Source: Bdellovibrionales bacterium CG10_big_fil_rev_8_21_14_0_10_45_34 (GTDB lineage: Bacteria > Bdellovibrionota > Bdellovibrionia > Bdellovibrionales > 1-14-0-10-45-34). Taken from it: a stretch of DNA of 64,000 nt. The position numbers and the translations under genes are program-made. The notes beneath the pieces were generated by a model that made no database searches, had not been told where the DNA came from, and saw nothing but the letters and a program-made list of their open reading frames with translations. Of the stretch, positions 32,141 through 58,466 are shown in pieces. The stretch is from assembly GCA_002778785.1 (NCBI GenBank), contig PEZS01000011.1:192995-256994 (forward strand). The letters are read 5' to 3'. How positions within the stretch are numbered: position 1 is the first letter of the stretch; each line of letters opens with the position of its first letter.

Positions 32141-35100
32141 ATGAATCCTGTAATTGATCCTGTTGATGATCCTATTAATGGTCCTGTTGCTGATACAGCA
32201 ATCGACTTTTTTGTTGAACCAGCAATCGACCTTGTTGTTGATTTAGTAATTGATCCCGTTGACGAGCCAGTTACCCGTCCACTGTTAAAAAGTCCTTGCT
32301 TGGTCTCGTTACGCCGTCACGTCCCCGTTTATTTAGCTCGCTCTGTGAAGTGCTTTCGCAAATCTGCCAACCTGCTCTTGTGTATTACGCTTCTGGTCTG
32401 TTTTTACTCGCTCAGGGCTCGAACCCAGGTTTCCCTGACAGACCAAAGTCCGGCTTCAATAGACTGGAAGTTTATCGAGACGGATTCGGTAAAGATTGTG
32501 TATCCATCACGTTTAAGAAAAAAGGCTGCGCAGATTGCCGAACTTATCGGTCATTATTCTCAGTATGTGGGCCGATCTTACGATCAGCAGAAACCACGCA
32601 AGTTCACACTTATATTGCGACCCGAGATGGCCTCGCCAAACGGATTCGTCACGCGGTCGCCGTTTAGGTCGGAGTGGTATTCATCTACCACTATAAACCC
32701 ATTTATCGGAGGCTTAGACTGGTACCAGGCGCTATCTATTCATGAGTATCGCCATGTTGTTCAGCTCGATTATTTTGATCAAGGCCTCGCCTCTACATTG
32801 AACTATCTATTTGGTGATACTGGTCTCGATCTTGCGCAAGTCTTCGCACTTCAGCCCTGGTTCCACGAAGGAGACGCCGTTTGGGCGGAGACCAAGTACA
32901 GCGATGCAGGTCGTGGCCGATCGCCGCGTTTTTTGGCAAGGCTGAAAGCATTGATGCTGGCCGGAGAGACTCCCTCTTACGATCAGTTTATCAGTGGTAC
33001 CTATAGCAATGAACTCGTTAATCACTATGTTTTTGGCTACATTCTAGTTTCTCAGGGATACAAAAAGTTTGGTGCCGATTTTTGGAAGAGTGTACTCGAG
33101 AGAAGCGCAGACTTTCCGTACCCTACCCGCATCACGCAGGCTTTTGAGCGGGTTTCTGGCCAAGACTTTTTTGATTTCTACGAAGAAACGTTTAACGATC
33201 TCAAACAAGTATGGTCAAAAGATCGCTTTAGCAATCTTGAGCCAACTGAATTCTCTGAAAAAATGAACCCTCAGTACGCTGGGGGGAGTTTGTATTTTGT
33301 AGAAAAAGATCTAAATTCATTTTCTGCTATCTTTCGCATGACGAAAAAAGGCAAAGAAAAAATTCGTGATATTCCCTACTCCGATATGTTTTCACGTTTA
33401 GACTTTCGGGGCAGCCACGCCATCTTCGTGGAGCAGCTTCCACATTGGAGATACGGGTTTAAGAGTTTTTCTGATCTCGTGCTTGTCGACTTAAAAGAGA
33501 GATCTCTCAAATATATCACATCGGGCGAACGACTTTACAATCCTCACTTCAACATATCGGGCGATAGGATTGTCGCGAGCGAATTTTTTGACGAGGCTCA
33601 TTCGAAAATTCAGGAGTTTGAAATTTCTGGCGAGCGCGCAAGAGCGCTTGCCATACCTGGGCTCGATCTTATTGAAGCTGTTCCCACTTCAGAAAACAGA
33701 GTTGTTGTGATTGCTGTCGACCGCTGGGGTTTCAAATCGATCATTCTTGCTGAGTTTGGGAATCAAAACTTTCGCACGCTTATACCAAAGACGAGGAACA
33801 ATATTTTTTGGCTCCAACATAGTGCCGGTGCGGTTCTTTTTGAAGCTCAGTACAAGGGATACAGCGAGGTATTTAAACTCGACATAAAATCGAATACGGT
33901 TTTTAGATGCACCCACAGTAAAATTGCCTCATATGCGCCGGCCTTTGCGAACAATTCTTTTGTTTTCTCGGAGCAAACACCCTATGGCTCTCGGCTAAAA
34001 AAACGCCCTCTTGCCGATTGCAAAAAAATCGAGCTTGGTGATCTTACAGACTACAATTACCTTAGCGATCAACCTAGCGACAATTATAACAATTTTGAAA
34101 CCAACCGAAGCTATGACCTTGTCAATTTTTCGCAAAATACGCTAGAGACCCAGAACAAAGAAAACAGTAAGAATTCTGATTTCGAAAAATCTGCCGATAC
34201 CACAACCCAGTTTAACGAGGGAGACTACGGTAGCTTTGACTCAAGAGCCTTCATCCCGCATTCATGGGGATTTTTTGTTGGCAATGGCTTTGGCCTTAGC
34301 TTACTGACTGACAATTACCTAGGTGATTTTGGCTCTGAGATTGCCCTTGGATCAAGCGCCGAAGAAAATCAGCCTTTTGCTTCAGCTAAGTTTAACTTCA
34401 AGAAGTATTGGCCCATATTCTCTCTCGTCGGCGAAGCACGTAAGCGCTCAACCGATGAGATGAGATCTGAGGCCGAGGTCTCATGGCGCGAATTCTACTA
34501 TGGTTTAGATATAACTTTGCCCTATGTTTTTCAAAATCATCTCTATAGCGGCGAGTTTGAGCTGAACTACTCTATCGGAGAAACATTAACTGACGAGTTG
34601 AGTTTAAGTGGCTTATCTTTAGGCAGTCGATCTGATACCAAGTATTTACGCCAAACCATAGGTGGCGCATTTTCTTATGCAAAGTCACTCACACCGAGGT
34701 CTTTGATTTCTCCTCTGAGTCTTGAAGCCTCAATGACTTATGAAGATGTACAAGCTCAACAACTCGAGCTGGGGAGGCCCGGCAGTTACAGAATTTTCGG
34801 TAAAAAAACGATCACATTGCCTGGCCCTTTTCTGAACGACGGATTTAAAATGGAATTCTCGGGGCAAAAGACAAGAGAGGGCGCGGGCAACTACCAGTTC
34901 TTGCCTCCGCAATTAAATCCTTTGAGCTACGTTCTGTCGCGGGGATACACTTATCAAGAAAACGAACAGTTCGTTAAAGCTAGCGGTAACTACGTCTTTT
35001 CGCTCTGGTATCCTGACATCAACTTAGGAGCCTGGTTTTACACGAACCGGATTTTTATGAATTTGTATTACGATCACACACAACTGAAGGCACTTCTTAA

Positions 35101-35257
35101 AAATTCTACGTTAAACAGCGCCGGCGGCGAACTCGAGTTTGAATCAAAAATCCTGCGTTTTCTGCCCATTAATCTGGGAATCCGCTATATTCATCGCTTC
35201 GAAGACTCCGCAGAAGGTGGCGAGATGTATTTGGCCACGCAAATCGACCTCGACTAA
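32141..35257 (+). CDS. large exported protein: gluzincin-like HExxH domain, probable beta-propeller region and a C-terminal beta-rich domain
   Basis: SIHEYRHVVQ (HExxH) with downstream WFHEGDAVWAE. Signal-like LLLCITLLVCFYSLRA follows residue 69, so the real start may be GTG at 32345. Confidence 0.55.
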   Translation: MNPVIDPVDDPINGPVADTAIDFFVEPAIDLVVDLVIDPVDEPVTRPLLKSPCLVSLRRHVPVYLARSVKCFRKSANLLLCITLLVCFYSLRARTQVSLTDQSPASIDWKFIETDSVKIVYPSRLRKKAAQIAELIGHYSQYVGRSYDQQKPRKFTLILRPEMASPNGFVTRSPFRSEWYSSTTINPFIGGLDWYQALSIHEYRHVVQLDYFDQGLASTLNYLFGDTGLDLAQVFALQPWFHEGDAVWAETKYSDAGRGRSPRFLARLKALMLAGETPSYDQFISGTYSNELVNHYVFGYILVSQGYKKFGADFWKSVLERSADFPYPTRITQAFERVSGQDFFDFYEETFNDLKQVWSKDRFSNLEPTEFSEKMNPQYAGGSLYFVEKDLNSFSAIFRMTKKGKEKIRDIPYSDMFSRLDFRGSHAIFVEQLPHWRYGFKSFSDLVLVDLKERSLKYITSGERLYNPHFNISGDRIVASEFFDEAHSKIQEFEISGERARALAIPGLDLIEAVPTSENRVVVIAVDRWGFKSIILAEFGNQNFRTLIPKTRNNIFWLQHSAGAVLFEAQYKGYSEVFKLDIKSNTVFRCTHSKIASYAPAFANNSFVFSEQTPYGSRLKKRPLADCKKIELGDLTDYNYLSDQPSDNYNNFETNRSYDLVNFSQNTLETQNKENSKNSDFEKSADTTTQFNEGDYGSFDSRAFIPHSWGFFVGNGFGLSLLTDNYLGDFGSEIALGSSAEENQPFASAKFNFKKYWPIFSLVGEARKRSTDEMRSEAEVSWREFYYGLDITLPYVFQNHLYSGEFELNYSIGETLTDELSLSGLSLGSRSDTKYLRQTIGGAFSYAKSLTPRSLISPLSLEASMTYEDVQAQQLELGRPGSYRIFGKKTITLPGPFLNDGFKMEFSGQKTREGAGNYQFLPPQLNPLSYVLSRGYTYQENEQFVKASGNYVFSLWYPDINLGAWFYTNRIFMNLYYDHTQLKALLKNSTLNSAGGELEFESKILRFLPINLGIRYIHRFEDSAEGGEMYLATQIDLD

Positions 35258-40553: not shown

Positions 40554-40683
40554 ACACCAATGCTCTGGTGGGTACGAAGCCCCTGAGTAATGCGTGGTGG
40601 CGGAAGAGCTTTTAGACAAAGCCGCCCACTCCGAATTATAAGTAGATCTCTCAGCTAGATCTGTGAAATTGTAATTTCTCAAC

Positions 40684-42784: not shown

Positions 42785-43435
42785 TTATTGCCCATTCGGG
42801 GTTTCTTCTCTGCCGGTACTTCTTGGAGGTAAATTTTCGTCTTTCTGCGTTTCTATAAAATACCGAGGGTTTCTGGACCGCGTGACAAAACTGCCCGGCC
42901 TTATGATTTGCCAAATATATCGAGAAGAAGTGACTTCATTGTCATTCTGATCCGGGAGCAAGTAGCGTTTTCGAAAGACTGGATATACCCACTTTGTGCT
43001 GTCATCGAGTGAGATTGCGGAGCTTCCGATCTCTTTCCCAGAGATTTTACAGGTAGTCCCGGTTTCGGTATCGCCAAGATTTAACCTCCTGGCCAAATCT
43101 GGATCCATATCCTTAGGATCACACAACCTGTATCTTGCATACCTGCCAGAGATTTCAGTTTGTTGATACTCCAACTGGCGGTAGTGCCATGCAAGTACTC
43201 CGCCTGTAGCTACCGAGAAAATCGCAGCCGTTATGATAGTGTTTTGGGTTTCAAATTGCTTCTGCTGCCCGTGATGAACAAACTGATTGCCTACGGCAGC
43301 TCCTACCACCGCGCCCGCTAGCATTCCTAGAGCAATGTTTTTACCAGAAGTTGCACATCCAGCAAAAGACAAACCCATTAGCAGAACAAATAGAAACTTT
43401 AAGTTATTCATCGCTTTCTCCTTGGGAAATTTCAT
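42785..43435 (-). CDS. lipoprotein, last gene of the T4SS-like cluster (VirB7/TraV-position, tentative)
   Basis: Lipobox LSFAGC followed by glycine zipper GMLAGAVVGAAVG. It overlaps the VirB10-like gene end (start 43435 or 43411). Confidence 0.5.
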   Translation of the reverse strand: MKFPKEKAMNNLKFLFVLLMGLSFAGCATSGKNIALGMLAGAVVGAAVGNQFVHHGQQKQFETQNTIITAAIFSVATGGVLAWHYRQLEYQQTEISGRYARYRLCDPKDMDPDLARRLNLGDTETGTTCKISGKEIGSSAISLDDSTKWVYPVFRKRYLLPDQNDNEVTSSRYIWQIIRPGSFVTRSRNPRYFIETQKDENLPPRSTGREETPNGQ

Positions 43436-44390
43436 ATCGCCGAGTCAATGCAACAAAAATGGCTTCACCAGCTGGCACAACAACGTACTCGACGGCGCTG
43501 TTGCGGATATCTCGAAGAATATCCTCTGCCACTTGAAACGAAGCTGTGCTTAGGCCGGCCAAAACTTGATTTTCAAGACTCACTTCCGGAACTGATCCAA
43601 AGGCACTCCCCGTTCTCTGCTGAGCCGCACCAGCAAATCCACTCAAAAAACCAAAGGCAAGAGCCGTTCCATACGTTTCTAGTTTGTTTGAGAAAAAGAG
43701 ACCATCAATCTCTGGCAAGGCGTTTCTTGAAAGCGCAAGACTGCTAATACGAGTTTCTTTTCCATTAGGCAATACAAGCGTATCAAACTCTACGATGACT
43801 CCCTTGAGGACTGGATTCAGTCTTGACCTGCCGATAAGGCGAGAGCCTTTGGGTATTTTCCTCACCGTATCCATTCGAAATTCATTTGTCGTTTCCGCCA
43901 TTGTGAAGGATCGCTGCACAGATGTTTTAATTGGCGTGATCAACTGCGCCTGAAAAACCGCTCCCGTCGGAACGTAAGCGTCAGAATCTGTAAAGGACGT
44001 TTCCGAAAAGCCACCCTGGGAGCTATCGTTGAGAATTATTTGGGTTGACGACGAATCTGCTAAAAATACCTTTCTCGTCTTCGGCTGGACGCTGGCTACG
44101 GTCCTTCGCCGGCTCACCTTCTGCTTTCTCAATAGTTTAACTTCTCTATGAAGCGCCTTGGTTTCCTGCTGGAGTTCCATGAGTTCCGCGACAGCCCTCA
44201 CGTCAGCGTCTTGGTCTGCGGTGGCGGCAGCTACTTGTTCTTTCTTCGCCGGATTCAAAAATAGGATCACTGCGACTCCAAGGCTAACTAATACAATGAC
44301 TGCGCCAACGAGAAAGCGGATCAACTTGCGCTTTTGATTTCTCCATGCGGCGGTGTCTTCTTTGTCTTTGATCAATTCGTCAATTCTCAC
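43404..44390 (-). CDS. VirB10/TrbI/TraB-like bitopic protein
   Basis: N-terminal TM LIRFLVGAVIVLVSLGVAVILFL and a coiled coil. C-terminal VPTGAVFQAQLITPIKT...IPKGSRLIGRS...VIVEFDTLVLPNGKE matches the VirB10 core pattern. Confidence 0.6.
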   Translation of the reverse strand: MRIDELIKDKEDTAAWRNQKRKLIRFLVGAVIVLVSLGVAVILFLNPAKKEQVAAATADQDADVRAVAELMELQQETKALHREVKLLRKQKVSRRRTVASVQPKTRKVFLADSSSTQIILNDSSQGGFSETSFTDSDAYVPTGAVFQAQLITPIKTSVQRSFTMAETTNEFRMDTVRKIPKGSRLIGRSRLNPVLKGVIVEFDTLVLPNGKETRISSLALSRNALPEIDGLFFSNKLETYGTALAFGFLSGFAGAAQQRTGSAFGSVPEVSLENQVLAGLSTASFQVAEDILRDIRNSAVEYVVVPAGEAIFVALTRRYEISQGESDE

Positions 44391-44839
44391 AACACACAGT
44401 CCTCATTAAAAACTTGGGTTATCTTTACGATGTAGTCTGCCTTCTCCTTTTCTACGAAACGCAAATCGAACATCAATTGAGCGTTTCCTTCAAAAAAAAC
44501 GAAAAGATTCGTATGAAAACTTTTATCCAATCCTTGAGCAAAATGCCCTTTAGTAGTGGATCTCAGAGATTCGATTTCTCTCATTTTTATATCTGGAATG
44601 ATTGCTAAACTTCGCTTCGACACTTTGTTTGTACTAATTTTAAAATGAATTTTGTCGGCGTAGAGAGTCAGTTTTGGTGTCTGATCAAATACCAACTGCG
44701 TCGTCATACCCAGCGCCAAGTTTACTTTAATTGGCTTACATGACGTCTCCGATACGATACGCATTCTATCCAAAGACCAGACACTTTGGGCAACCGTAAG
44801 GGCGAGTAGTAATTTTATTGCTTGCTTGAACATCAGCAT
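44387..44839 (-). CDS. small exported VirB9/TrbG/TraK-like protein (N-domain only)
   Basis: Signal peptide. KVNLALGMTTQLVFDQ...HFKIS...SLAIIP...TNLFVFFEGNAQLMFDLRF resembles the VirB9/TraK N-terminal beta domain. Confidence 0.45.
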   Translation of the reverse strand: MLMFKQAIKLLLALTVAQSVWSLDRMRIVSETSCKPIKVNLALGMTTQLVFDQTPKLTLYADKIHFKISTNKVSKRSLAIIPDIKMREIESLRSTTKGHFAQGLDKSFHTNLFVFFEGNAQLMFDLRFVEKEKADYIVKITQVFNEDCVL

Positions 44840-45984
44840 TCCCTTCTCAAAATTTCACTCTTAGCCCTTCGAGAAAGAGCTACGAGCCCGTCTTTCTTGT
44901 TCGAAGACCTGTTAGTGACGCTACGCCACCCACTTCTCACCGATCGATCGGCAGATAGGCTCTCGCTTTCAATGGTGTCATGCTCCTCTGTGCCATGACT
45001 TGCCTCTTTCGCCCGCACAGATTGCTTACGCATTCTTCTTTCTGCTTCTGCTTTTTTATCGTGAAGGTCTTCTACTTGATGGGTCAGCTCGTGAGTTCTT
45101 TTGAACTCTCGACCCGAAAGAAAATCATGCTTTATGATTTGAAATCTCTGACCAATGCTAGCGCGTGTCACTCCCGCCGCCCATAACCCTCCTCCGGCAA
45201 CCTTGCCGAGCGCTGTGAGACCTAAAAATGCCATGCCCCAACCTGCCTCAGATGGAAATATACTGCTACCCAAGTGATTGCCGAATTTCCTGGTTATTGG
45301 CGGCACGAAGAGCATTGAAATTCCTAGGACTAAAGACAAAAAATAATAATTTGAATCGGGGTGGTTCGGAAAGGGCTCTCCACTCACAATCGCTGGAAGA
45401 ATAAAGGCCACTAATACAATAATTGTCGTCTGCCAGAGAAAAAGTATAACAAGCTCTCGAGTGACCTCAAATAGCGCCTCTACTTCGTTGAAGAGTATGC
45501 CCTTCGTGAGGACAAATGGTCCTAGAACCGCAAGTAGGAAAAACTGAACCATAAAGAATGCGTAGAGTACCCAGTAGGCTAAGTTTGGTATGAATCTCGC
45601 CACCGTCTCGGCAGACCATCCAAATATTCTTGATGGACTATCAAGACTTGGAAATCCGAAACCCCTCCAGGAAATTCCAAAAACATCTACAACAAGATAT
45701 GTGTTGAACGTATCTATGAGGTTTTTCAAGGAAAGTACAAACACTGGCCAAAAGATGATTGCGATGACAATGACCGCAAAATTCCAAACTTTTTCTTCCA
45801 TTCTTGCGTCTTCAAACCTTCTCAGAGCAAGTATTCCGATCGAAGCAATAAGAGTGAGGGTTATTAACAGGGAGGCCGGTTCCGAAAATTGAACAACAAC
45901 CCTTTCAAACCAACCCGGTGGAAGCGAAAAAGCGGTTGCACGAACCGGAAACACATTGACCTGAGGGTATCCAAAATCATTCAC
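44833..45984 (-). CDS. polytopic membrane protein in the VirB6/TrbL position
   Basis: At least 6 hydrophobic helices and a charged C-terminal tail. Start overlaps the upstream stop by 4 nt. Confidence 0.45.
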   Translation of the reverse strand: MNDFGYPQVNVFPVRATAFSLPPGWFERVVVQFSEPASLLITLTLIASIGILALRRFEDARMEEKVWNFAVIVIAIIFWPVFVLSLKNLIDTFNTYLVVDVFGISWRGFGFPSLDSPSRIFGWSAETVARFIPNLAYWVLYAFFMVQFFLLAVLGPFVLTKGILFNEVEALFEVTRELVILFLWQTTIIVLVAFILPAIVSGEPFPNHPDSNYYFLSLVLGISMLFVPPITRKFGNHLGSSIFPSEAGWGMAFLGLTALGKVAGGGLWAAGVTRASIGQRFQIIKHDFLSGREFKRTHELTHQVEDLHDKKAEAERRMRKQSVRAKEASHGTEEHDTIESESLSADRSVRSGWRSVTNRSSNKKDGLVALSRRAKSEILRREC

Positions 45985-46682
45985 TTTTCTCGCCTCTCCT
46001 TCTGCAGTTCATTTTGCCGAGAGGCCCCCTCAAAAATGGCCGATCCGCCTGACCGAGCGCTTTGAGTTCTGAGAAGCCTTAGCTCTTCTCGAATAGCTTG
46101 CATCGTCGCGAGCATCTGAATGAGTTGACTTGATACTCGAACATTTGCTCGCCAGTTTCCTATTTGTGACTCTGCAATTACTTTGGGTACGAAGCCCGGT
46201 TCCGCCGAATTCAGTGCCTGCTCAAGCATTTTCTGCCTTGCAAGATCGTCCTGATTGGCTAGTACTCCGCTTTTCTGAAAGTTTATAAAGTCACCAGTTT
46301 TCATCTGTGCCTCGTCATCTCTTCCACGAGGATCCGCATCAATTACCTCTTTAAGTTGTTTGGCTTCAGTGAAGGTATTCTTGAAGCTATTGTTGGATTG
46401 AACCTCCAACATCGCCTTTTCATAGAGGGCGGTGCCTTGAACTTTCTCTAAAGACCTATCGACTCCGCTAGATAAGCGACCCAGTGATCGGTCGATACCA
46501 TCCAACTGACTACTTGATAACTTTGAAGTTTCTAGCGACTGCTTCAGGAGTTCAATTTGTTCCCTTGTTTGGAGCACTAGTTGCCTCAGTTGCATTGAAT
46601 CTGCAGATAATAGATTTGAAGATGCACGATTCGAAACAAAGCACAAACCCAACACAAAAAGAGCCACCTTAAGTTGATTCAT
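45981..46682 (-). CDS. exported coiled-coil protein in the VirB5/TrbJ position
   Basis: Signal peptide. All-helical and Q/L-rich, with C-terminal SSQLIQMLATMQAIREELRLLRTQ reminiscent of TrbJ. Confidence 0.45.
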   Translation of the reverse strand: MNQLKVALFVLGLCFVSNRASSNLLSADSMQLRQLVLQTREQIELLKQSLETSKLSSSQLDGIDRSLGRLSSGVDRSLEKVQGTALYEKAMLEVQSNNSFKNTFTEAKQLKEVIDADPRGRDDEAQMKTGDFINFQKSGVLANQDDLARQKMLEQALNSAEPGFVPKVIAESQIGNWRANVRVSSQLIQMLATMQAIREELRLLRTQSARSGGSAIFEGASRQNELQKERREK

Positions 46683-48982
46683 CTCACTTCGCTCCTTTGC
46701 TCTTTTGAAAACTGCAGCAACTTTCTTTGAAAGCTTCCGCTATTTTTACTAAGGGCACTCTCAAGATAAGAAATATCTTCAGGGGAAGTGGTCGAAAGCC
46801 AATATTCCAGTTTGTTTGGTTCATATCGCAAAATCGTTCTATCATGATCTCGCATAAGGTAGATTTCTGAAAAAGACCCTTTTTCTCTTTGAAGTGAATC
46901 AATTGCCATTTGGTCAACTTCAGTAAGAGACAAGATTTGTGAGTAGTTCCTTGGGTCACCCCTTTGTTGAAGGATCGCCTTAGAATGAGTGTTTTGTAGA
47001 ATGCTAGAGCCTGCGAGGTTAGAGGTAACCTTTTCTAGATCTTGAACGATGATGATCACTCCGCTGTAGTACTTTCGTAGCGTTGAAACAAGTTCATCAA
47101 CAAACATGGATTGAGTTTTCAGTAGCGAGAAAGCAACTTCATCGAGTACTAACCATGAAAATCTTTGCCTTTTAGTATCTCGGACCCTGGCCCAAACCGT
47201 CGCGCACACGATGAGCTGGACGACTCTTGCAAGGTCCTCAAACTCAGTAAGTCCCTTAAGATCAAATGTCATAATGTCTTGATCGAGGGGGATGCTAGCA
47301 TCGGTATCTAGGAACTGTGCAAAGAAACTTCCTTTACCCCATGGCTCGAGCAGCATGGCCAACTTCTTCTCTTCTTCGCTTCGAGGACCTGATAACTCGT
47401 CAATGAGGTAGCTGATTGGTCTACGCGGCAACTCCTTCATTTCAAACAGGTCCGTTAGTTTTTCCCACAACAAATGCCGAATCTCTACAGATGACGACTT
47501 TCCGTCGAATCTAATCATCTCCAAGAAAATCTGAAAAATGTGCTGACGCCTTATGGTCTCTTCTTTGGAGTTATCAGATTTAGCCAAGAAGAATGGCCCC
47601 ATTTGAAAGCCTGTATCTATATCAAAGCCCATAACCTTTCCGCCCAAGAACTTTGTTAACTTGTTATAGGACCCTCCAATATCGACGATAAAAATATTCG
47701 GATTCAAACTCATGCTTTGAGCAATGAGTGAATTGACAAAGAAACTCTTTCCAGCTCCGCTGGTTCCGCTAACTAGCCAGTTGTAATTTGCGACGGCTGG
47801 ATCGATGGGATCAATTGAGTATATGCTACCGCTTCTGGTGTGAAAGGTTACAACCGGCCTCGCATCTCCTTTAGACGGTCTGAAGAAGGGCAAAAAATGT
47901 ATCGCGTTAGAACTTAAGACTGTATGCAGTTTTTGGTTTTTTCCTCTGAAAGTAGGGATGCACTCCAAATAAGAATCGAATGTACCGATTGCACTCTCTT
48001 CGAATTCACAAAAATTCATTTTGGCGGCAGCTTGCACGATATGCCCGAGAGCTCGACTCTGAAAGACGCCCAAAGACTCCGGCATTCTTAAGCCGACATT
48101 TGCCTGGATGGCTACGATGTTCTCAGAGTTCTCTGCTAAAATTCTGAGTATTTCATCGATTTGGCGAATCTGACTTTCGATCTTTTGAAGATCTTTGTTC
48201 CCTCTTTTTGACGCCAGCAAATTTCTCTTCTTTTCAAGACTCTTACTGACCGGCTGTGTTTGTTTAATCTTTAACCTTATTGATAAATCTATGGGATATG
48301 GCAGCGACGTAATCGCCTCTATCATACCCAAATGAGTTTCCGCTTCTGGCAGCTTAGTGAGTTCTACCGAGCGAAAGACGTCTCCATCTATTTTGAGATG
48401 GCCGGGGCGGATTTCGATGTGGGGCCACTCATTCTGAAGATCTTCGGACTTTTGCAGCGACTGAGCGCTCGAGTTAATCTCTTTTAGAACTTCCTCTTTA
48501 CCAAGAACTCTGGCGTTAAGACCCATGGCCCTAAGGGCCGACAACATCAGAAGCCGTTTTTCATTGCCCCCTTGCCGGCCCGAATTACCCGGACTCCAGT
48601 AACAAACAATTATCTTCTGAGAGGAGACTTGAGGCAAATCTTCACTCATCTCACTTAGCTCACTCGCTAGCTTTGAAAGCAAAAGCTGGCGTCCGTATTT
48701 GTTCTCCGACAAGAGAGAGTTTTCTAGCTGAGACTCCACCCAATCAGAAAAATGCACTCTCTTTCTGTAGATTATTTGAATCTCTTCGCCAGCTTCAAAA
48801 TGAAAAGCTGTTCTCCAAAGGTTGTGAAGCTGATTTATCTTTTGATCAGTGAAAAATGACGTATCTATACCGTCTACGGAGTATAGCCATCCGCTACATT
48901 TTTTTGCCCCAAGTGTTCCGTCTTCTGCTACTTCATTAACGGGCCAAAAATCTTTCAATGAAAAGGCCTTAGGCTCGAGCAT
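46679..48982 (-). CDS. VirB4/TrbE/TraC-family type IV secretion ATPase
   Basis: 767 aa. Walker A VSGTSGAGKSFF, Walker B WLVLDEVAF, and overall VirB4 length and layout. Confidence 0.8.
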   Translation of the reverse strand: MLEPKAFSLKDFWPVNEVAEDGTLGAKKCSGWLYSVDGIDTSFFTDQKINQLHNLWRTAFHFEAGEEIQIIYRKRVHFSDWVESQLENSLLSENKYGRQLLLSKLASELSEMSEDLPQVSSQKIIVCYWSPGNSGRQGGNEKRLLMLSALRAMGLNARVLGKEEVLKEINSSAQSLQKSEDLQNEWPHIEIRPGHLKIDGDVFRSVELTKLPEAETHLGMIEAITSLPYPIDLSIRLKIKQTQPVSKSLEKKRNLLASKRGNKDLQKIESQIRQIDEILRILAENSENIVAIQANVGLRMPESLGVFQSRALGHIVQAAAKMNFCEFEESAIGTFDSYLECIPTFRGKNQKLHTVLSSNAIHFLPFFRPSKGDARPVVTFHTRSGSIYSIDPIDPAVANYNWLVSGTSGAGKSFFVNSLIAQSMSLNPNIFIVDIGGSYNKLTKFLGGKVMGFDIDTGFQMGPFFLAKSDNSKEETIRRQHIFQIFLEMIRFDGKSSSVEIRHLLWEKLTDLFEMKELPRRPISYLIDELSGPRSEEEKKLAMLLEPWGKGSFFAQFLDTDASIPLDQDIMTFDLKGLTEFEDLARVVQLIVCATVWARVRDTKRQRFSWLVLDEVAFSLLKTQSMFVDELVSTLRKYYSGVIIIVQDLEKVTSNLAGSSILQNTHSKAILQQRGDPRNYSQILSLTEVDQMAIDSLQREKGSFSEIYLMRDHDRTILRYEPNKLEYWLSTTSPEDISYLESALSKNSGSFQRKLLQFSKEQRSEVR

Positions 48983-49343
48983 CTGTACTCCCTTCAGAAA
49001 TCAAATGGCAAGCCAACCTTTTTGGTAAACTGAGGAATCTCAGTAGCCTGAGAAAAAGCAATCCGCCCAATGAGGCTCGGACTAACACTGCAAATAGTCC
49101 CACTAAAGCCGCAAGCAGAAATGCCCATGCACGCGGGATATGAAGGAACTGCGCCAGCTCACCACCAAAAACGACAAGAACACAAAGAACTACGAGCTCG
49201 CGAACGCTCACGCCAAATATGTAAAAGTTTGAATCGAGATTTCGGTAAACAGGGGTACTCATGCTAGGCCTTCTTTCATTCTTACGAAAGAGACGCCAAC
49301 CACTTAAAAGGAGCCAAGAGATCTTTTCTTGGCTGATGATCAC
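48969..49343 (-). CDS. VirB3/TrbD/TraL-like small membrane protein
   Basis: PVYRNLDSNFYIFGVSVRELVVL followed by two TM helices. GTGA start/stop overlap with the pilin-like gene. Confidence 0.5.
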   Translation of the reverse strand: MIISQEKISWLLLSGWRLFRKNERRPSMSTPVYRNLDSNFYIFGVSVRELVVLCVLVVFGGELAQFLHIPRAWAFLLAALVGLFAVLVRASLGGLLFLRLLRFLSLPKRLACHLISEGSTDARA

Positions 49344-49636
49344 ATAAAATAATCTATGATCATCTGGGCTGCATTAACCACTACTAATCCGATGACCCCA
49401 TAAACCAGACGAGTAAGACCCGATGATTCGCCTTTAGCGATCAAAAGGCCAGCCCAAGCAATAAATCCAATGATTACAACGTTCATTAATCTTACCAAAT
49501 CTGCGATCAACTCACCGATTCGACCTTCTAGCCCGCTCTGCGCAATCAAAAGTTGCGGCAAAAACGCCACCACTATCAAAGGCAAAACAAACGAACGCAA
49601 TTTCAAGGGTTTATGTTTATGTCGACTGTCTCTCAT
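49340..49636 (-). CDS. VirB2/TrbC-like pilin subunit
   Basis: 98 aa: long signal peptide, two hydrophobic helices separated by the KGESSG loop, and first position in the operon. Confidence 0.6.
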   Translation of the reverse strand: MRDSRHKHKPLKLRSFVLPLIVVAFLPQLLIAQSGLEGRIGELIADLVRLMNVVIIGFIAWAGLLIAKGESSGLTRLVYGVIGLVVVNAAQMIIDYFM

Positions 49637-52743: not shown

Positions 52744-53640
52744 ATGGGAGAGTTATTGCTAGTCATCGCGCTGCTCATGCTCGGTCTATCTGTGTTTCTA
52801 TTTGTCAATTCGCTCATTTCAAAAAACATCAACGACCAAGCGCTTTCGTGGGCTTCCGGAGAAGAGCCGACTAAATCGAAAAGTCCGTTCCTAGAATTAT
52901 CAAGACCCCTTGTTCACCGCTTTGCCATTGGACTTGCGCAAAAGGTGAAATCTACTAACTACCGTAAATCCATTGAACTCAAAATCAACAACTCCGGCCT
53001 GATGGCTGAGCTCAACGTGGATGAGTTTATTGGCCTGCAAATTCTTTGGGGCGTACTCTTTCCGTTTTTGGTTCTTTTTCTCAATGTCACGCTGGAACTG
53101 GGCTACCCGCCCTTGGCTGTTGTCACATTCGGCGCCTTCGGCTTGTACTTTCCCAATCTTCACACGAATACTCAGAGAGCCCAAAGAGTCTCTTCGATTC
53201 AGGCAGACTTACCTTTTTTCATTGATCTTCTGGCTTTGTCGACAGAGGCAGGACTCGACTTCATTGGAGCCATCCAGCGTGTGGTTGAAAAAGCGGAAGG
53301 TTCTGTGCTTGGTCAAGAGCTTCAAACAACATTGAATGATATTAAACTGGGAGCTTCGCGCGCTGAGGCTCTTAAAAGATTTGCCGAGAGAGTTGATCTA
53401 AAAGAAGTTACAAGTTTTGTAACAGTGCTTGTGGATGCAGACCAAACCGGCGCAAGTATCGGCAAGGTCCTTAAGGATCAAGCCATCCAAATGCGTCTGG
53501 AGCGCTTTGCTCGCGCCGAAAAAGCGGGAGCCAGGGCCAATCAACTCATTTTGCTGCCGCTACTAATTTTCATTTTGCCAGCCGTCTTCATTATAGTTTT
53601 TGGTCCAATTGCACTTCAATTTACCGGTCAAGGGGGATAG
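52744..53640 (+). CDS. type II secretion system F-domain protein, TadC/TadB-like platform protein
   Basis: N-terminal TM plus a single T2SSF domain: LPFFIDLLALSTEAGLDFIGAIQRV...LGASRAEALKRFAERV...ADQTGASIGKVLKDQA...LLPLLIFILPAVFIIVFGP. Confidence 0.8.
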   Translation: MGELLLVIALLMLGLSVFLFVNSLISKNINDQALSWASGEEPTKSKSPFLELSRPLVHRFAIGLAQKVKSTNYRKSIELKINNSGLMAELNVDEFIGLQILWGVLFPFLVLFLNVTLELGYPPLAVVTFGAFGLYFPNLHTNTQRAQRVSSIQADLPFFIDLLALSTEAGLDFIGAIQRVVEKAEGSVLGQELQTTLNDIKLGASRAEALKRFAERVDLKEVTSFVTVLVDADQTGASIGKVLKDQAIQMRLERFARAEKAGARANQLILLPLLIFILPAVFIIVFGPIALQFTGQGG

Positions 53641-53641
53641 G

Positions 53642-54010
53642 TTGTCTTATAGAGATCTTCCCCACATTCAGATACTCAAACGGGCTTCTCAAAAGCCCCC
53701 TTTTGAGACTGTTTACGAAGCCCGTGGAACACTCGCTCGACTGCGCGGCCTACTTTTTGAGTCACAAATTCCAGATGGACACGCTCTTTGGATTTCAAAC
53801 TGTAACAGCGTGCATACATTTGGCATGACGTATCCGATATACGTCGCATTTCTCAACAGAGACCTGCGAATCATCAAACTGTTTGAGGGTCTCAAGCCTA
53901 ACCGAATCTCACCGGTAGTTTGGGGAGCCAAAAGTGTATTAGAGTTCATTCGGCCAAAGAGCGGAGTTCTCCCGATACAAGAAGGGGAGGAGCTTTATGT
54001 GGTCAGCTAA
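53642..54010 (+). CDS. DUF192 (COG1430)-like protein
   Basis: ARLRGLLFES...GHALWISNCNSVHTFGMTYPIYVAFLNRDLRII. TTG at 53642 follows AAGGGGGA. The track start at 53600 overlaps the tadC-like gene. Confidence 0.55.
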   Translation: MSYRDLPHIQILKRASQKPPFETVYEARGTLARLRGLLFESQIPDGHALWISNCNSVHTFGMTYPIYVAFLNRDLRIIKLFEGLKPNRISPVVWGAKSVLEFIRPKSGVLPIQEGEELYVVS

Positions 54011-55580
54011 AGTTCTTCTCGGTCCAGATCAAGGAAAGGCCTTTGCCTTAACAGAGGGCGTACATACTTTCGGACGAGGTTCAGATTGCAGTGTTGTCAT
54101 CAACAGCAAAGGAATCTCAAAGCGACATTTCCAAATAAAAGTAAGCGGATCATCACTTGCTATTCAAGATCTTGGCTCGTCAAACGGCACATTCGTAAAT
54201 GGAGTAAAGATAAAATCCGCTCGGTTAAAACTAGGAGATCAGATTCAAATCTTCGACACGATTCTGGGAATCTCAGCTCTCCTCCATGCCGTGGAGCAAC
54301 CGAAACGCACTCATCAGATTGGCTCAAGCACAATTCCATTTGGCGCCCCTCCTAACCTGGAGCCAAATACTCAGGAAGCGGGGAGCTCGCAATTGAATTG
54401 GGATGCGTCAAGCTTTTCTACGAAAGTAAACAACTGGATAGAGCATTACATTATGCCAGCTGTTTACGAAATCTCTCAAAAAAATGATTTCAAATGGGTG
54501 CTTGCCGGTTTTATCGGAAGCTTGGCACTTCTCATCACTGTCTTCTCTTTAGCCCCGATGATACAAATTACTAAAGAGAGCGTCGACAAGGAAAGTGGAA
54601 GAAGGGCTCTATCGATTGCACAAATGCTTGCCGAAAGATACGAGATTGCAAATCGGCAAGGAGTTGCAAATCAGTTTGACACCAGACGTGCGGAAGTAGA
54701 AGAAGGTGTTGAGGCTGCTTATATTATCAAGGCCATTGACGGCTCCACGTTGGCGCCGGCGAGACTGGCAGGAGAACACATCAACCTACCCTTCGTGCAC
54801 ACTGCTCGAAGAAGCGACCAAAAAATGATGGAGCTTATAGACTCCGATCGTATTGGCGCCAGTGTCCCCATTATGGCTTACAGCTCAGAAATGGGCGCCT
54901 ATGCACCTGTAGCTTACTCGGTAATTATATATAACAAAGGATCTTTAGCTGTTGATAACGGTAGAGTTCTGGCTTTGTTTGTAAAAGTGCTTATGCTTTC
55001 GTTCATTCTAGGCGCAATCTGTTTTGTTCTTCTATACAGAGTTATTAAGAAGCCTATTAAGGCACTCAAAGATCAAGTACATCAATCTCTCTCAGAAAAG
55101 ATAGATATGGTAAACGAGGAGTTTGCGCTAGACGAATTTAGCGATCTGGTAATCAATATTAAAGCAGCCATTCAAAAAGCAAACCTCCTTACAGATTCCA
55201 GCGACTCATTGGCTTCTGCGACGGTTGATCACTCTCTTGAGGCCGAAAATCTATCTCGTTTGATTGCACAGCCGTGTATGGCAATATCGTCTGACAAAAA
55301 GATTTTGGCAATCAATCAGGCATTTGAAGACATCTCTGGCCTACGATCATTGCAGCTCAACCAATGCGAGATATCTCAGATACCAGATCAATCGTTACTC
55401 CTGTCGCTTGAAGAGCTTCTGGGTAACGCCACCCAAAATCCTACGCAAGTACAAAGTCAAACTTTGGACTTCAATGGAATTCCCTATAGCCTAGATGTTC
55501 AAGCCATTCAATCGAACCGAGGGGTCGAATACTATCTTGTAGTCGCCACCGACTCAACAGGAGCCCAAAATGTCATCTAA
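53997..55580 (+). CDS. FHA-domain transmembrane sensor-like protein (FHA, TM, periplasmic region, TM, HAMP-like, PAS-like)
   Basis: FHA motifs FGRGSDCSVVINSKGISKRHF...SSNGTFVNG. TM segments at about residues 165-190 and 320-345. C-terminal AISSDKKILAINQAFEDISG is PAS-like. Confidence 0.65.
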   Translation: MWSAKVLLGPDQGKAFALTEGVHTFGRGSDCSVVINSKGISKRHFQIKVSGSSLAIQDLGSSNGTFVNGVKIKSARLKLGDQIQIFDTILGISALLHAVEQPKRTHQIGSSTIPFGAPPNLEPNTQEAGSSQLNWDASSFSTKVNNWIEHYIMPAVYEISQKNDFKWVLAGFIGSLALLITVFSLAPMIQITKESVDKESGRRALSIAQMLAERYEIANRQGVANQFDTRRAEVEEGVEAAYIIKAIDGSTLAPARLAGEHINLPFVHTARRSDQKMMELIDSDRIGASVPIMAYSSEMGAYAPVAYSVIIYNKGSLAVDNGRVLALFVKVLMLSFILGAICFVLLYRVIKKPIKALKDQVHQSLSEKIDMVNEEFALDEFSDLVINIKAAIQKANLLTDSSDSLASATVDHSLEAENLSRLIAQPCMAISSDKKILAINQAFEDISGLRSLQLNQCEISQIPDQSLLLSLEELLGNATQNPTQVQSQTLDFNGIPYSLDVQAIQSNRGVEYYLVVATDSTGAQNVI

Positions 55581-56517
55581 GGCTCTTGCTCCCAAGGATG
55601 TGTCGAACCAAGCCGTAATATTAATTGGGGTTGATCAGGGTAAAGTTTTCGATCTGAAAGAAGGGTTGAACTTTGCGGGGCGTTCTCTTGACAACGACAT
55701 TGTTATCAATGATCCAAAAACGAGTCGCAAGCACTTTGTATTGAATGTCAGCGTCGGACAAGTTCACTTCAAGAATCTCAGTCCACAAAATGAAATCCTC
55801 ATCAATGGGAAGTTTCTCCTTGAAGGGCGTCTCGAACCAGGCACCTTGATCCTTCTCGGCGATACGCAAATTAAAATTCAAACCTCTAACCTGATGAAGG
55901 CAATCCCTTTTGGCGGACTCCCGGTAGAGAAGCCAAAAAACCAACGAGTATCTCTTTCGACTCCTCCCAAGCAGGTATCAAAGCAATCGCCCGCAAACCC
56001 AATCAAGTACGCAATATACGCGGCAATACTTATCGGAGTTGGCTATCTTGTTTTGAATTCACCCAGTACGATTCCGCAGACTTCCAATCCTGGGGCAGAA
56101 ACCGAAGCAATTTCTCCTTCAGAAGATGCCTCGTCGACACTTCTTCGAGAACTGTCGGCATCCGGAAAAGACACACAGAACTACACAGAGGCGCAGGCCG
56201 CTTTTATAAGAGGATTTAGGGATTATCGCGAGGGCAATTACAGAAGAGCCGCAGATTCTTTTGGCGCAGCTTTAAGTTTGTATCCCACCCATCAACTTGC
56301 TCAGAAATACCTGGCGCTAGCGCAAAGAAAACACGACGAGTTGATTCAAAATACGATGGTCGAGGCCAGAAGACTTTTTGAGCAGGGTTCGCTGCGAAAG
56401 TCACAAGCTAAATATAAGCTTGTTGTGATTTTATTGCAGGACCCAAATCATTCGCTCTACAAAGAGGCGCATGATAAGTTTAACGAAATCGAACTTTTGT
56501 TGAAGAGTGAATTTTAA
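55570..56517 (+). CDS. FHA-domain, TM and TPR-like protein
   Basis: FAGRSLDNDIVINDPKTSRKHF, TM segment YAIYAAILIGVGYLVL, and C-terminal TPR-like helices (YREGNYRRAADSFGAALSLYP). Confidence 0.65.
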   Translation: MSSKALAPKDVSNQAVILIGVDQGKVFDLKEGLNFAGRSLDNDIVINDPKTSRKHFVLNVSVGQVHFKNLSPQNEILINGKFLLEGRLEPGTLILLGDTQIKIQTSNLMKAIPFGGLPVEKPKNQRVSLSTPPKQVSKQSPANPIKYAIYAAILIGVGYLVLNSPSTIPQTSNPGAETEAISPSEDASSTLLRELSASGKDTQNYTEAQAAFIRGFRDYREGNYRRAADSFGAALSLYPTHQLAQKYLALAQRKHDELIQNTMVEARRLFEQGSLRKSQAKYKLVVILLQDPNHSLYKEAHDKFNEIELLLKSEF

Positions 56518-56519
56518 AA

Positions 56520-58466
56520 ATGTTGGTGATTCGCATACTTCTTGATTCAAATGAATTTAAGATTCTACCGCTCGATGGGGATCGGCAGTTTACTATAGGA
56601 AGAGATGCTTCGGTAGATGTGATTCTACCCGATCCGACAGTCTCTAGAAAACATGTTGTCGTCAAGAAGGTCGACACTGAATGGGTTATTCAGAAAACCT
56701 CCCGATTTGGAACTCTCACGCAGTCTGGTCGACCCGTCGAATCTGCAAAGATAAAAGCAGGCGATGTATTTGAGATCCCACCATTTACGTTTATGGTAGA
56801 GGAACTTGACGAAGAGAAAAGCAAGGTCCTTGCAGAAACGCGACTATTAAAGCAAGAGGCTACAAGCTCTCTAGTTTGGCAGGACCCACTAGAGTCTGAA
56901 TTGTTGGGCTCCCAACCCGAAATTCAGAACTCCAATGGCAGTCTCGCTACATCTGATGAGGAAGAGGGCGCCAGCACTTTTGTTGGCGACAATCCCCTAG
57001 GCCTTCAAAAGGATCTGGTCCCCTGCCTGAGAATTACATCCCCAACCGATCCCGAACAAATTTACTTACTCAAAAGCGGGCCCTGGATTATTGGGCGGGC
57101 CCAATCCTGTGATATCGTTATTAACGACCCGAAATCTTCACGTACACACATTGAAATCAGTGTCTCCGGAGATAAGTACTACGCCAAAGATCTTCATAGC
57201 TCAAATGGCACACTCTTCGGTGAAGCTGCCCTTTCGACATCAAAAACTCTCATTCAAAGCGGCGATTATTTGGTCGTGGGCGAAACCAAAATTTACTTCG
57301 AGATATTAGATCCTGCCGCTCAGTCTTTGAGCCTAGAGTTGCAACAAAGTCCAATAACACACACCTCGATGGGCTCCACACGCTTGCCACGGAATCGATT
57401 TGCTACACTGCCGCATCTACAGGGGATTGATAAGAAGCATTACCTTCGAGGTGCAGCGGTTTTCATTGTGATTTTGGCTGTATGGCTCGGAAATCAAAAG
57501 AAAGATACAGTTAAGATTACACAAAGCCATAACAATCCCATCGATCTTCTTACCCCTGAGCAGAAGACGGCTGTTGAAACAACCTATCAGTTGGCAAAAA
57601 ATCTTTACATTCGCGGTAGCTACGAATCAGCATCTCTCGAACTTGAAAAGCTCCATCAAATAATCCCATCCTATAAAGACTCCACAGAATTGGCTAAGTT
57701 TTGTTATGAAGCAATTCAGCTGCAGAGTGAGCATCAGAGAATAGAAGAAGAAGAGTCGAGAGTAAAAGAAGTACAGCAGAAGGTAGGCGATATCATTGAA
57801 CGATGTGAACAAAACTGGTTGAAAACTCGACGATCTATCGAAGTTGAAAGTTGTCTGGCACCCGCCCTGGAGCTAGATCCTGCAAATTCGAAGGCCGCCA
57901 ATCTTGTACAGATGGCGTCTTCGTGGGAGAGAGACGTCGACAATAAAGAGGCCGAAAAACACAGATACCAACAATTGGTAGCGCTTGGAGTAAAAAAATT
58001 CCAGACTGCCCAAAACGCCCACAAAGCAGGCGAGCTACTAAAAGCTAAGTCACTTTACGAAGAACATCTTTCTTCAAGCTATCCTGATCCAAAGGATCTC
58101 AAAGATCGTTCCCGAGAAGGGTTGTCGAGGCTTGAGCAACAAGTTTTAAAAAGAACGAAGGGTTTAAAAGAGGCGGCTCGAAATGAGTATAATAAAGAGA
58201 ATATTAAACAGGCGCTCCTGCTACTGAGAGAATGCCTCAAGATTTCGCCCACGGACCCCGAGGCCAAGGACCTAGAACAGAACTGGAGTCAGGAGCTTTT
58301 TAGAAACATGAAGCGCCTGTACACCGATGCGATCCTTGAAGAGAATCTCGGCCAACTCGAGGCGGCTAAAGCCAAATGGAAGAAAATCATAGCGTCCGAT
58401 CTCAATGGAAATGAGTATTACGAAAAAGCGCGCAGTAAACTCAAAAGAATCGGGGAAAGCTTTTGA
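56520..58466 (+). CDS. tandem-FHA, TM and TPR-repeat protein
   Basis: Two FHA cores (TIGRDASVDVILPDPTVSRKH; IIGRAQSCDIVINDPKSSRTH...SSNGTLFG), TM segment AAVFIVILAVWLG, and a long helical-repeat C-terminus. Confidence 0.65.
   Translation: MLVIRILLDSNEFKILPLDGDRQFTIGRDASVDVILPDPTVSRKHVVVKKVDTEWVIQKTSRFGTLTQSGRPVESAKIKAGDVFEIPPFTFMVEELDEEKSKVLAETRLLKQEATSSLVWQDPLESELLGSQPEIQNSNGSLATSDEEEGASTFVGDNPLGLQKDLVPCLRITSPTDPEQIYLLKSGPWIIGRAQSCDIVINDPKSSRTHIEISVSGDKYYAKDLHSSNGTLFGEAALSTSKTLIQSGDYLVVGETKIYFEILDPAAQSLSLELQQSPITHTSMGSTRLPRNRFATLPHLQGIDKKHYLRGAAVFIVILAVWLGNQKKDTVKITQSHNNPIDLLTPEQKTAVETTYQLAKNLYIRGSYESASLELEKLHQIIPSYKDSTELAKFCYEAIQLQSEHQRIEEEESRVKEVQQKVGDIIERCEQNWLKTRRSIEVESCLAPALELDPANSKAANLVQMASSWERDVDNKEAEKHRYQQLVALGVKKFQTAQNAHKAGELLKAKSLYEEHLSSSYPDPKDLKDRSREGLSRLEQQVLKRTKGLKEAARNEYNKENIKQALLLLRECLKISPTDPEAKDLEQNWSQELFRNMKRLYTDAILEENLGQLEAAKAKWKKIIASDLNGNEYYEKARSKLKRIGESF

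Follow-up and report, generated by a model that had tools for sequence, protein, structure and literature searches.

Type IV secretion systems (T4SSs) that lack a coupling protein (T4CP) form a recognised class, to which Ptl, Brucella VirB, Helicobacter ComB and Bartonella Trw belong (PMC12857230, section 20). ComB takes up DNA, Trw forms variable adhesive pili, and Ptl and Brucella VirB export proteins in two steps (PMC12857230). A relaxase-less chromosomal T4SS is also widespread in epibiotic Patescibacteria, where the authors trace it to the co-option of a conjugation system; in the class Saccharimonadia, epibiotic growth requires T4SS genes (PMC12102498). Here we describe an operon in a 64-kb stretch of the Bdellovibrionales bacterium CG10_big_fil_rev_8_21_14_0_10_45_34, an uncultured relative of predatory Bdellovibrio (contig PEZS01000011.1, positions 192,995 to 256,994; hereafter the window, to whose numbering all positions refer). 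The locus is probably a co-opted, coupling-protein-less T4SS of an undescribed Bdellovibrionota mating-pair-formation (MPF) lineage, of which relatives that look like integrative and conjugative elements (ICEs) are extant. In the searchable literature we found no account of such a system from Bdellovibrio, from Bacteriovorax or from Bdellovibrionota at large. A preliminary account made from the letters of the window (the sequence-only reading) had regarded a chromosomal T4SS without a coupling protein as not a standard layout; such a category is recognised (PMC12857230) and, judged from the window and from 10-kb flanks in relatives, the locus belongs with it functionally.

Components of the operon

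The eight tightly packed minus-strand open reading frames (ORFs) that the sequence-only reading placed at 42785-49636 can be read in the sequence at those positions, and the same genes were called independently by gene callers on five other assemblies of the same organism, with contigs of up to 876 kb. The unit extends beyond these eight to a ninth co-conserved gene, g298 (Table 1). Of the four start/stop overlaps originally listed, those at 46679-46682, 45981-45984 and 44387-44390 stand. The fourth, GTGA at 49340-49343, is spurious and arose from maximal-ORF calling: both the homologues and the gene callers start the second gene at ATG 49262.

Table 1. Positions of the operon genes, of one noncoding feature and of related loci (window numbering unless a locus or record is named)
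Feature	Position	Strand	Basis or content
VirB2/TrbC-type pilin, 98 aa	49340..49636	-	Pfam TrbC, E 9.5e-8; signal peptide and two hydrophobic helices
Stem-loop with T-rich tail	49312..49334	-	Terminator-like site (scan), also read directly in the sequence
VirB3/TraL-like protein with two transmembrane segments, 97 aa	48969..49262	-	Starts at ATG 49262, not GTG 49343; position and topology
VirB4/TraC-family ATPase, 767 aa	46679..48982	-	Profiles; sole ATPase of the locus
Exported or membrane-anchored 233-aa protein in the VirB5/TrbJ position	45981..46682	-	Apparently helical, judged by eye from the sequence
VirB6-like polytopic inner-membrane protein, 383 aa	44833..45984	-	Five transmembrane segments, charged C-terminal tail
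VirB9 N-terminal-domain-only periplasmic protein, 148-150 aa	44387..44839	-	AlphaFold fold; without the VirB9 C-terminal O-layer domain
VirB10/TrbI-like bitopic protein, 328 aa	43404..44390	-	Pfam TrbI, E 4.5e-16, above gathering score
Lipoprotein 1, 208 aa (216 aa from upstream ATG 43435)	42785..43411	-	Lipobox Cys; 208-aa start likelier
Lipoprotein 2 (g298), 298 aa	41776..42672	-	Invariant lipobox, then CGT(R/Q)DY
VirB4::233-aa-family fusions	L007:9875-12946 (P0014); P0020		Sequence
Group III loci	L013, L015, L017 (= L037), L024, L035, L040		Same protein families and order; T4CP-like 505-aa ATPase
Group III downstream regions	L024:15824-22340; L040:15860-22334		T4CP-like ATPase, MobC-like protein, 500-520-aa protein
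pBdHAGR1, Bdellovibrio sp. HAGR004	L028 (AP029177.1) 1730-13404		Compact remote T4SS set with T4CP-like ATPase
pYRE, Myxococcus stipitatus	L027 (NZ_CP102771.1) 6946-17365		Compact remote T4SS set with T4CP-like ATPase

Its defining parts make the locus a T4SS. Six of the nine proteins are identified, and the intactness of the operon, its conservation, its ICE relatives and its native context are established as well; the proposal of a genuine, intact T4SS core is upheld by profiles, folds and intact genes. The pilin, which heads the operon in all related loci and has three hydrophobic segments in a hydropathy scan, reaches 32.6 bits on Pfam TrbC and so exceeds the gathering threshold of 27.9. 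The 767-aa ATPase matches P-loop_TraG in Pfam (E 1e-31), the TraC-F-type model of NCBIfam (E 1e-58) and VirB4_CagE (E 5e-34), and the profile of its family matches the VirB4 structure 4AG5 (E 1.4e-11). Its Walker A (SGTSGAGKS) and Walker B (VLDE) motifs are intact and invariant across 17 VirB4 homologues. The sequence-only reading, which had called this protein VirB4/TrbE, was right as to VirB4; the TrbE part falls away, the TrbE model reaching 39 bits against 199 bits for TraC-F-type.

An outer-membrane core is represented by a VirB10/TrbI domain and a VirB9-family protein, the VirB9 C-terminal domain being absent. The VirB10-like protein has a single N-terminal transmembrane segment (residues 27-45), and its best PDB sequence match is DotG/IcmE (E 0.02); tblastn against plasmids returned no match for it. 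The 150-aa protein has no sequence-family match, and the best PDB sequence match of its family profile is the TrwF N-terminus (E 0.12). Its AlphaFold model (predicted local distance difference test score, pLDDT, 89.7) is closest to the N-domain of R388 TrwF/VirB9 (E 2.8e-8, root-mean-square deviation 2.5 A), and the top nine PDB matches are all VirB9-family chains of T4SS outer-membrane complexes. Besides TrwF these nine comprise a Cag periplasmic-ring entry (CagX/CagY), a Dot/Icm periplasmic-ring chain and the Xanthomonas core complex, along with the outer-membrane core complex of the F plasmid and a second conjugative entry of that type. The predicted fold is unambiguous in pointing to a VirB9 N-terminal domain and nothing more.

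Two lipoproteins close the operon. Lipoprotein 1 follows VirB10 in all loci that reach that far, and is marked by an invariant lipobox Cys, a glycine-zipper segment (the glycine-zipper Pfam matches lie below threshold) and a conserved C-terminal block, LDDxTKWVYPxFRKR...W(E/Q)IxRPGxF. Its family profile found nothing meaningful among PDB sequences. In g298 the invariant CGT(R/Q)DY after the lipobox leads into a Pro/Ser-rich linker and then into Gly-rich hydrophobic segments; no Pfam or NCBIfam match was obtained. A concatenated query of four unassigned proteins likewise found no match in a large protein collection.

The VirB3-like protein is assigned by position and by its two transmembrane segments in the hydropathy scan, together with weak Pfam matches within its family to VirB3-equivalent families (TraL in 2 of 19 members, PrgI in 2 of 19 and TcpE in 1 of 19). 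The family hidden Markov model (HMM) matches the ORF directly upstream of VirB4 on plasmid pBdHAGR1 (E 1e-5); the family profile gave nothing meaningful against PDB sequences. All 18 of 18 homologues begin at an MRxPIYRxLD motif and gene callers likewise give 97 aa, so that the 124-aa ORF is over-extended. Profile-profile comparison by hhalign with four F-type reference sets (TraL/E/K/B/V/G) lacked power: the VirB10-like protein and TraB, an expected homologue pair in which both carry the TrbI domain, reached only P = 0.03. On this underpowered scale the VirB3-like protein gave P = 0.02 against TraL and lipoprotein 1 gave P = 0.0025 against TraV, both uncorrected. Lipoprotein 1 is a candidate VirB7/TraV analogue.

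The 383-aa polytopic protein resembles VirB6 by its five transmembrane segments and its predicted fold. All five of its top Foldseek PDB matches (model pLDDT 76) are R388 TrwJ/VirB5-TrwI/VirB6 stalk entries with chain lengths of 260-272; from entry title and chain length we take the matched chains to be TrwI/VirB6. The best match is weak (E 0.02, probability 0.99, TM-score 0.43). No sequence-level link to TrbL/VirB6 appeared in Pfam, and the family profile search found the same clade only, with no Pfam-labelled distant relatives. In Group II of the related loci (see below) the VirB6-like proteins carry long His-rich tracts of H/D/G/E repeats (L018:12528-14396, L019:10367-12121, L023:12851-14620) and a conserved C-terminal domain of ~90 aa that is not found in Group I.

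The 233-aa protein has an N-terminal hydrophobic segment below the transmembrane threshold of the hydropathy scan, and its family is conserved at 14-40% identity. It has no Pfam, NCBIfam or PDB-profile match, and no relative was detectable outside its own family. Two lineages, which are only 56% identical to each other, have a protein of this family joined in frame to the VirB4 C-terminus, and the hydrophobic segment is kept as a linker between the two parts. The fusion argues for direct association of the 233-aa protein with the ATPase platform. We know of no VirB4 fusion of this kind in described systems.

Measured against these results, the labels of the sequence-only reading hold firmly for the VirB2/TrbC-like pilin (Pfam), the 150-aa VirB9-like protein (predicted fold), the 328-aa VirB10/TrbI-like bitopic protein (Pfam TrbI, one transmembrane segment) and the lipoprotein then given as 216 aa (conserved lipobox Cys). 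They hold on weaker evidence for the VirB3/TraL-like and VirB6-like proteins. The VirB5/TrbJ label of the 233-aa protein had been drawn from position alone, and the sequence and profile searches gave it no support.

With the second gene starting at ATG 49262, a gap of 77 nt separates it from the pilin gene, and the stem-loop of Table 1 lies within this gap. It may act as a partial terminator and so determine how much pilin is made relative to the machinery. Such a role would suit a machine that needs pilin in excess; the element is not conserved in other loci, where only 7-20 nt lie between the pilin and VirB3-like genes. A scan for sigma-70 promoters gave nothing above shuffled expectation. 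Group III loci adjoin a sigma-54 activator, which was the motive for a scan for sigma-54 promoters upstream of pilin genes; it matched 4 of 21 upstream regions and none in the window, and the candidate was rejected. An exact 14-nt repeat, TGGGTACGAAGCCC, occurs at 40569-40582, just after rpoD, and at 46184-46197, inside the gene for the 233-aa protein; it is probably due to chance.

Chromosomal context and relatives

Pfam annotation of the whole window revealed no relaxase, T4CP, VirB11, VirB1, integrase, replication or partition gene in the 64 kb. A VirB8/TraE bitopic assembly factor, expected of a T4SS, was matched neither among the nine proteins (Pfam, NCBIfam) nor elsewhere in the window. 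These absences had been listed correctly from the sequence. Linked relaxase, T4CP and integrase or replication genes, as in an ICE or a conjugative plasmid, do not occur within the 64 kb. F-type (TraC) T4SSs do not use VirB11. Given the TraC-like ATPase, the absence of VirB11 is thus expected, and is no reason to call the operon stripped-down, as had been done.

The description of the flanks as housekeeping genes was accurate: rpoD, dnaG, tRNA-Met(CAT) and a ferritin gene lie on one side, and divIVA, proC, yggS and maf on the other. Composition is also like that of the rest of the window, with a GC content of 0.43-0.49 in the operon against 0.447 for the window and a tetranucleotide correlation between the two of r = 0.937 (within-window control 0.957). 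Around the locus no att-type repeats of the tRNA-Met gene were found. Neither such repeats nor an integrase, named by the sequence-only reading as what would speak for an inserted element, is present in the sequence available, and the locus is not a recent insertion.

A genome scan with one genome per species recovered 16 loci, all in metagenome-assembled genomes (MAGs) of Bdellovibrionota, and further examples came from metagenome contigs. In a large protein collection VirB4 homologues at 39-59% identity form about 74 clusters, of which all named ones are Bdellovibrionota MAGs. Gene order is the same in every locus as far as the contig reaches, the VirB3-like and 233-aa genes being recognised by position only in the more distant loci. 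The conservation across related genomes that the earlier account had asked about was thereby found: the operon is collinear in 16 species-level MAGs and the flanks vary between genomes.

Three architectures were distinguished. Group I, the window and nine others, has the order pilin, VirB3-like, VirB4, 233-aa, VirB6-like, VirB9 N-domain, VirB10, lipoprotein 1 and g298. Group II keeps this order, but its VirB6-like protein is long and His-rich and its g298 is a remote homologue; two Group II loci have a short member of the 233-aa family or none that was detected. In Group III the VirB6-like protein is split in two, g298 is absent and a 505-aa ATPase stands between VirB10 and lipoprotein 1. The g298 gene is confined to operon versions without a coupling protein, being co-linear in six Group I loci at 30-36% identity, with remote homologues at the same position in Group II (HMM E about 1e-5). 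Groups I and II are flanked by ordinary chromosomal genes that differ between genomes (5 loci annotated). Within 10 kb, 0 of the 5 annotated Group I/II loci have a T4CP-like ATPase, a MobC-like protein or an integrase, and no mobility gene was found there; an HMM of the Group III T4CP detected nothing in the window or in Group I/II loci.

A VirB4 phylogeny had been proposed as a means to place the locus among the MPF classes. In a neighbour-joining tree, drawn without support values, Groups I-III form one clade of their own; the next branches are the VirB4s of the plasmids pBdHAGR1 and pYRE and a few metagenomic sequences, followed by F-type TraC.

The close relatives of Group III, which carry a T4CP-like ATPase and an integrase, had been missed by the sequence-only reading. 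They share with the window the same protein families in the same order and one VirB4 clade, and differ from it by the T4CP-like ATPase, the lack of g298, a candidate relaxation protein and the integrase. The best named matches of the 505-aa ATPase are coupling proteins throughout: SXT TraD (E 1.5e-8) and TrwB_AAD_bind, and in the PDB TcpA, a 'DNA translocase coupling protein'. Other matches of the T4CP family are a Myxococcus gene, on pYRE, annotated 'TraM recognition domain-containing protein' and an ORF at the start of a Providencia plasmid record, not listed in its annotation table, which we take to be a TraD-type T4CP. In Group III a protein of 320-390 aa, weakly similar to MobC replication-relaxation proteins, is followed by a conserved protein of 500-520 aa (512 aa). 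A tyrosine integrase ends the region in both loci with enough flank, and HTH_17 occurs in L024 only. With its T4CP-like ATPase, MobC-like protein and integrase, Group III looks like an ICE, and is apparently an undescribed ICE family of Bdellovibrionota. Since such close relatives carry the T4CP-like ATPase and the integrase, an ICE ancestry is indicated for the window locus as well.

A rival reading is that the system is still conjugative: a T4CP, relaxase and origin of transfer (oriT) from another part of the genome, or from a Group III ICE or plasmid present in the same cell, would use the chromosomal channel in trans. A Group III element with similar GC content and tetranucleotide usage was recovered from the same site; our search for partners covered the 64-kb window, and distant partners have a precedent in ComB11 of Helicobacter, which was long thought absent and is encoded far from the comB operons (PMC13395361). 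However, Group III has its own complete channel and so does not need that of the window. Close homologues of its T4CP-like ATPase in metagenomes all lie inside Group III operons, with none stand-alone, the annotated T4CP-less loci are free of mobility genes within 10 kb (0 of 5), and composition is ameliorated. Conjugation in trans is accordingly quite improbable.

The plasmids pBdHAGR1 and pYRE encode the next-closest VirB4s and recognisable relatives of the lipoprotein, the VirB3-like protein and VirB10. They differ from the window in having a T4CP-like ATPase and no g298, and pYRE also in having ParA/ParB, ArdC and TopA. Most of their T4SS genes, and all of those on pBdHAGR1, carry the annotation hypothetical protein, and MOB-suite types the two plasmids as 'non-mobilizable'. 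Neither these plasmid systems nor Group III were found described in the searchable literature. To judge from their gene content, they may be conjugative plasmids overlooked by current typing schemes.

Selection has kept the chromosomal versions. Wherever a contig covers a T4CP-less operon, its core genes are intact and in the same order, and VirB4 is 40-59% identical across lineages. Synonymous divergence (dS) is saturated, and the nonsynonymous rate (dN) is 0.21-0.40 for VirB4, VirB10 and the VirB6-like protein and 0.62 for g298. The operon is under purifying selection. The loss of integrase, T4CP and candidate relaxase would also be expected of an inert remnant of a decayed ICE that has not yet accumulated disabling mutations, but the intact genes, the saturated dS and the low dN (0.2-0.4), together with invariant catalytic motifs, exclude a decaying locus for practical purposes. 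Among the T4CP-less loci covered, the 233-aa family in the two Group II loci mentioned above is the only departure. The pattern of conservation effectively refutes a remnant, which we consider extremely improbable.

Possible functions

The explanation that we prefer, with moderate confidence, is that the operon is an exapted mating-pair-formation module, a VirB4-powered pilus or envelope channel that serves contact or adhesion and not conjugation. Its ancestor would have been an ICE lineage specific to Bdellovibrionota, from which the integrase, the coupling ATPase and the candidate genes for DNA processing would have disappeared; a second lipoprotein would have been gained, and purifying selection would then have retained the module in the chromosome. 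In such a machine the inner-membrane platform would consist of the VirB3-like protein, VirB4 and the VirB6-like protein, and a reduced core at the outer membrane would be made of VirB10, the VirB9 N-domain protein and at least one of the two lipoproteins. As the only ATPase, VirB4 would pull VirB2 pilin out of the membrane for assembly into a pilus or pseudopilus, with the helical 233-aa protein at its base or tip. Pilus production, the roles of the 233-aa protein and of the two lipoproteins, and the biological function are inferred.

Pilus assembly requires the T4SS subunits and not VirD4, and deletion of the T4CP makes F and pKM101 hyperpiliated (PMC13463995). A derivative without T4CP is therefore expected to be a constitutive pilus maker. 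Lacking a coupling protein, the machine would stay in its default, pilus-producing mode. At the surface it would most likely serve to contact other cells, whether prey or kin, or to adhere to them, rather than to export DNA. Adhesion or contact is suggested by the biology of the phylum and, by analogy, by the Bartonella Trw and Patescibacteria T4SSs. A more specific form of this proposal is a phylum-specific T4SS co-opted by uncultured predatory Bdellovibrionota as a prey-contact organelle, whose pilus, driven by VirB4 alone and built on a reduced core, would be used for attaching to prey cells, sensing them or breaching them. We put it forward tentatively, as an unlikely but specific version.

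ComB-like competence would make different use of a similar part list. Here retraction of a VirB4-driven pilus or pseudopilus would pull extracellular double-stranded DNA, from prey for example, into the periplasm, and a ComEC-type channel would take it onward through the inner membrane. ComB is a VirB/MPF_T-type system that works with ComEC/ComH. The window VirB4 shows no sequence relationship to it, scoring 199 bits on TraC-F-type against 118 on VirB4_CagE. ComB has VirB8 and no VirB5, whereas the window locus has no VirB8 and an extra helical protein. The sets are nevertheless close (VirB2-4 and VirB6-10 without VirD4 in ComB; PMC12857230, section 20), VirB4 is the sole ATPase of the locus, and it is TraC-like, the F system being the only T4SS so far shown to retract its pilus (PMC12857230). 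ComB also needs a VirB11 (PMC13395361), and none is seen at the window. Competence genes are linked to the operon in 0 of 5 annotated loci. On balance DNA uptake is doubtful, though the nearest of the alternatives to contact or adhesion.

A second use without a coupling protein is two-step secretion of the Ptl/Brucella type, in which a pilus-like piston would push a Sec-exported periplasmic substrate, either g298 or an unlinked toxin or hydrolase, through the core. T4CP-less T4SSs that export periplasmic cargo exist (PMC12857230). As a substrate g298 has some appeal, being an exported protein with hydrophobic, Gly-rich stretches that diverges faster (dN 0.62) than the core genes and is confined to operons without a T4CP. 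Its lipobox is, however, invariant, which makes a structural lipoprotein more likely, and no conserved cargo gene adjoins the operon across the annotated loci. Ptl and Brucella VirB moreover retain the VirB11 ATPase. Protein export of this kind is improbable.

Several observations weigh against a dedicated contact or adhesion pilus. A T4CP, a relaxase or a further subunit may be encoded elsewhere in the genome, as ComB11 is (PMC13395361). Because a VirB8/TraE equivalent was not identified in the window, the machine is possibly incomplete or built differently. All carriers are uncultured MAGs, and the pilus is predicted from their genes. The Group III element with its own T4CP (L017 = L037) belongs to the same aquifer community and resembles the window in tetranucleotide usage (r = 0.92). 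Finally, the neighbour-joining tree, which carries no support values, has the topology (I,(II,III)), with Group III nested within the clade, and so settles neither the direction nor the number of T4CP losses.

Other loci of the window may be recorded here. At 52744-59179, adjoining maf, lie a T2SSF (TadB/C-like) gene, a DUF192 gene and three consecutive genes for FHA/Yop-YscD_cpl proteins (527, 315 and 648 aa). This cluster may be part of a Tad-type pilus or of a signalling module, and has no sequence kinship to the T4SS operon. A copper-resistance cluster at 6995-12121 encodes a heavy-metal P-type ATPase with HMBD, a MerR-family regulator and a three-domain multicopper oxidase. Large ORFs without any Pfam match occur at 32141-35257 (1038 aa), 16827-18395 (522 aa) and 30960-32072 (370 aa).

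Significance and comparison with described systems

The single VirB4 clade provides a natural series of a conjugation machine changing its use. It contains both ICE-like versions and chromosomal versions that have lost the T4CP and the integrase, gained a lipoprotein and been under selection across deeply diverged species. With one ATPase, a VirB9 N-domain and no recognisable VirB8, this is a very small T4SS for a diderm, and it tests which parts pilus biogenesis requires. Should the operon serve prey contact or DNA uptake, an unknown organelle would be added to the biology of predatory bacteria; a prey-contact organelle would be a diderm parallel to the T4SS needed by epibiotic Patescibacteria. 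As an ICE-borne ancestor would be extant in sister lineages, the path of co-option could then be reconstructed.

The locus shares several features with the F type. Its VirB4 scores best on the TraC-F-type model, the nearest named plasmid homologues are TraC (22-25% identity), a TraL-like protein follows the pilin gene, VirB11 is absent and the VirB9-like protein matches a core-complex chain of the F plasmid. In contrast to F-type systems the window locus lacks TraD, TraI and the F-specific genes, and its gene order is VirB/Trb-like. Membership in MPF_F was rejected: TIGR02746 (TraC-F-type), although the best model, reaches 198.9 bits against a cut-off of 567, and Pfam annotation of the window and of related loci shows none of the F-specific TraE, TraW, TraU, TrbC, TraN, TraF, TraH and TraG. 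Membership in MPF_T (VirB/Trb, P-type) was rejected as well, with TrbE PRK13873 at 39 bits against a cut-off of 1020, VirB4_CagE at 118 against 643, and no T2SSE/VirB11 or VirB8 anywhere in the window. The Trb/P-type description given earlier is thus valid for gene order, which is collinear, and not for lineage, in view of the VirB4 scores and of the plasmid relatives listed, which are all TraC. The lineage, including the Bdellovibrio and Myxococcus plasmids, seems invisible to current MPF classification, and the conjugative elements of these phyla are therefore probably under-counted.

ComB, Trw, Ptl and Brucella VirB are all VirB/Trw-type (MPF_T) systems with VirB8, full-length VirB9 and VirB7; VirB11 is encoded in the locus of Trw, Ptl and Brucella VirB, not in that of ComB. 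With these four the window shares a chromosomal T4SS core without coupling protein or relaxase, presumably co-opted from conjugation, and with ComB, as classically described, also the encoding of VirB4 as the only ATPase. It differs from them in its TraC-like VirB4, its VirB9 reduced to the N-domain, two unrelated lipoproteins and no VirB8 or VirB11 seen; at the sequence level it is a member of none of the four. The T4SS of Patescibacteria is a parallel in setting, as it too is chromosomally fixed, relaxase-less and defined by a phylum-specific VirB4 clade in bacteria living on other bacteria. That system is monoderm, MPF_FATA-derived and evolutionarily unrelated, and its essentiality has been shown, whereas the window locus, known from its genes, would represent a separate co-option in a diderm phylum.

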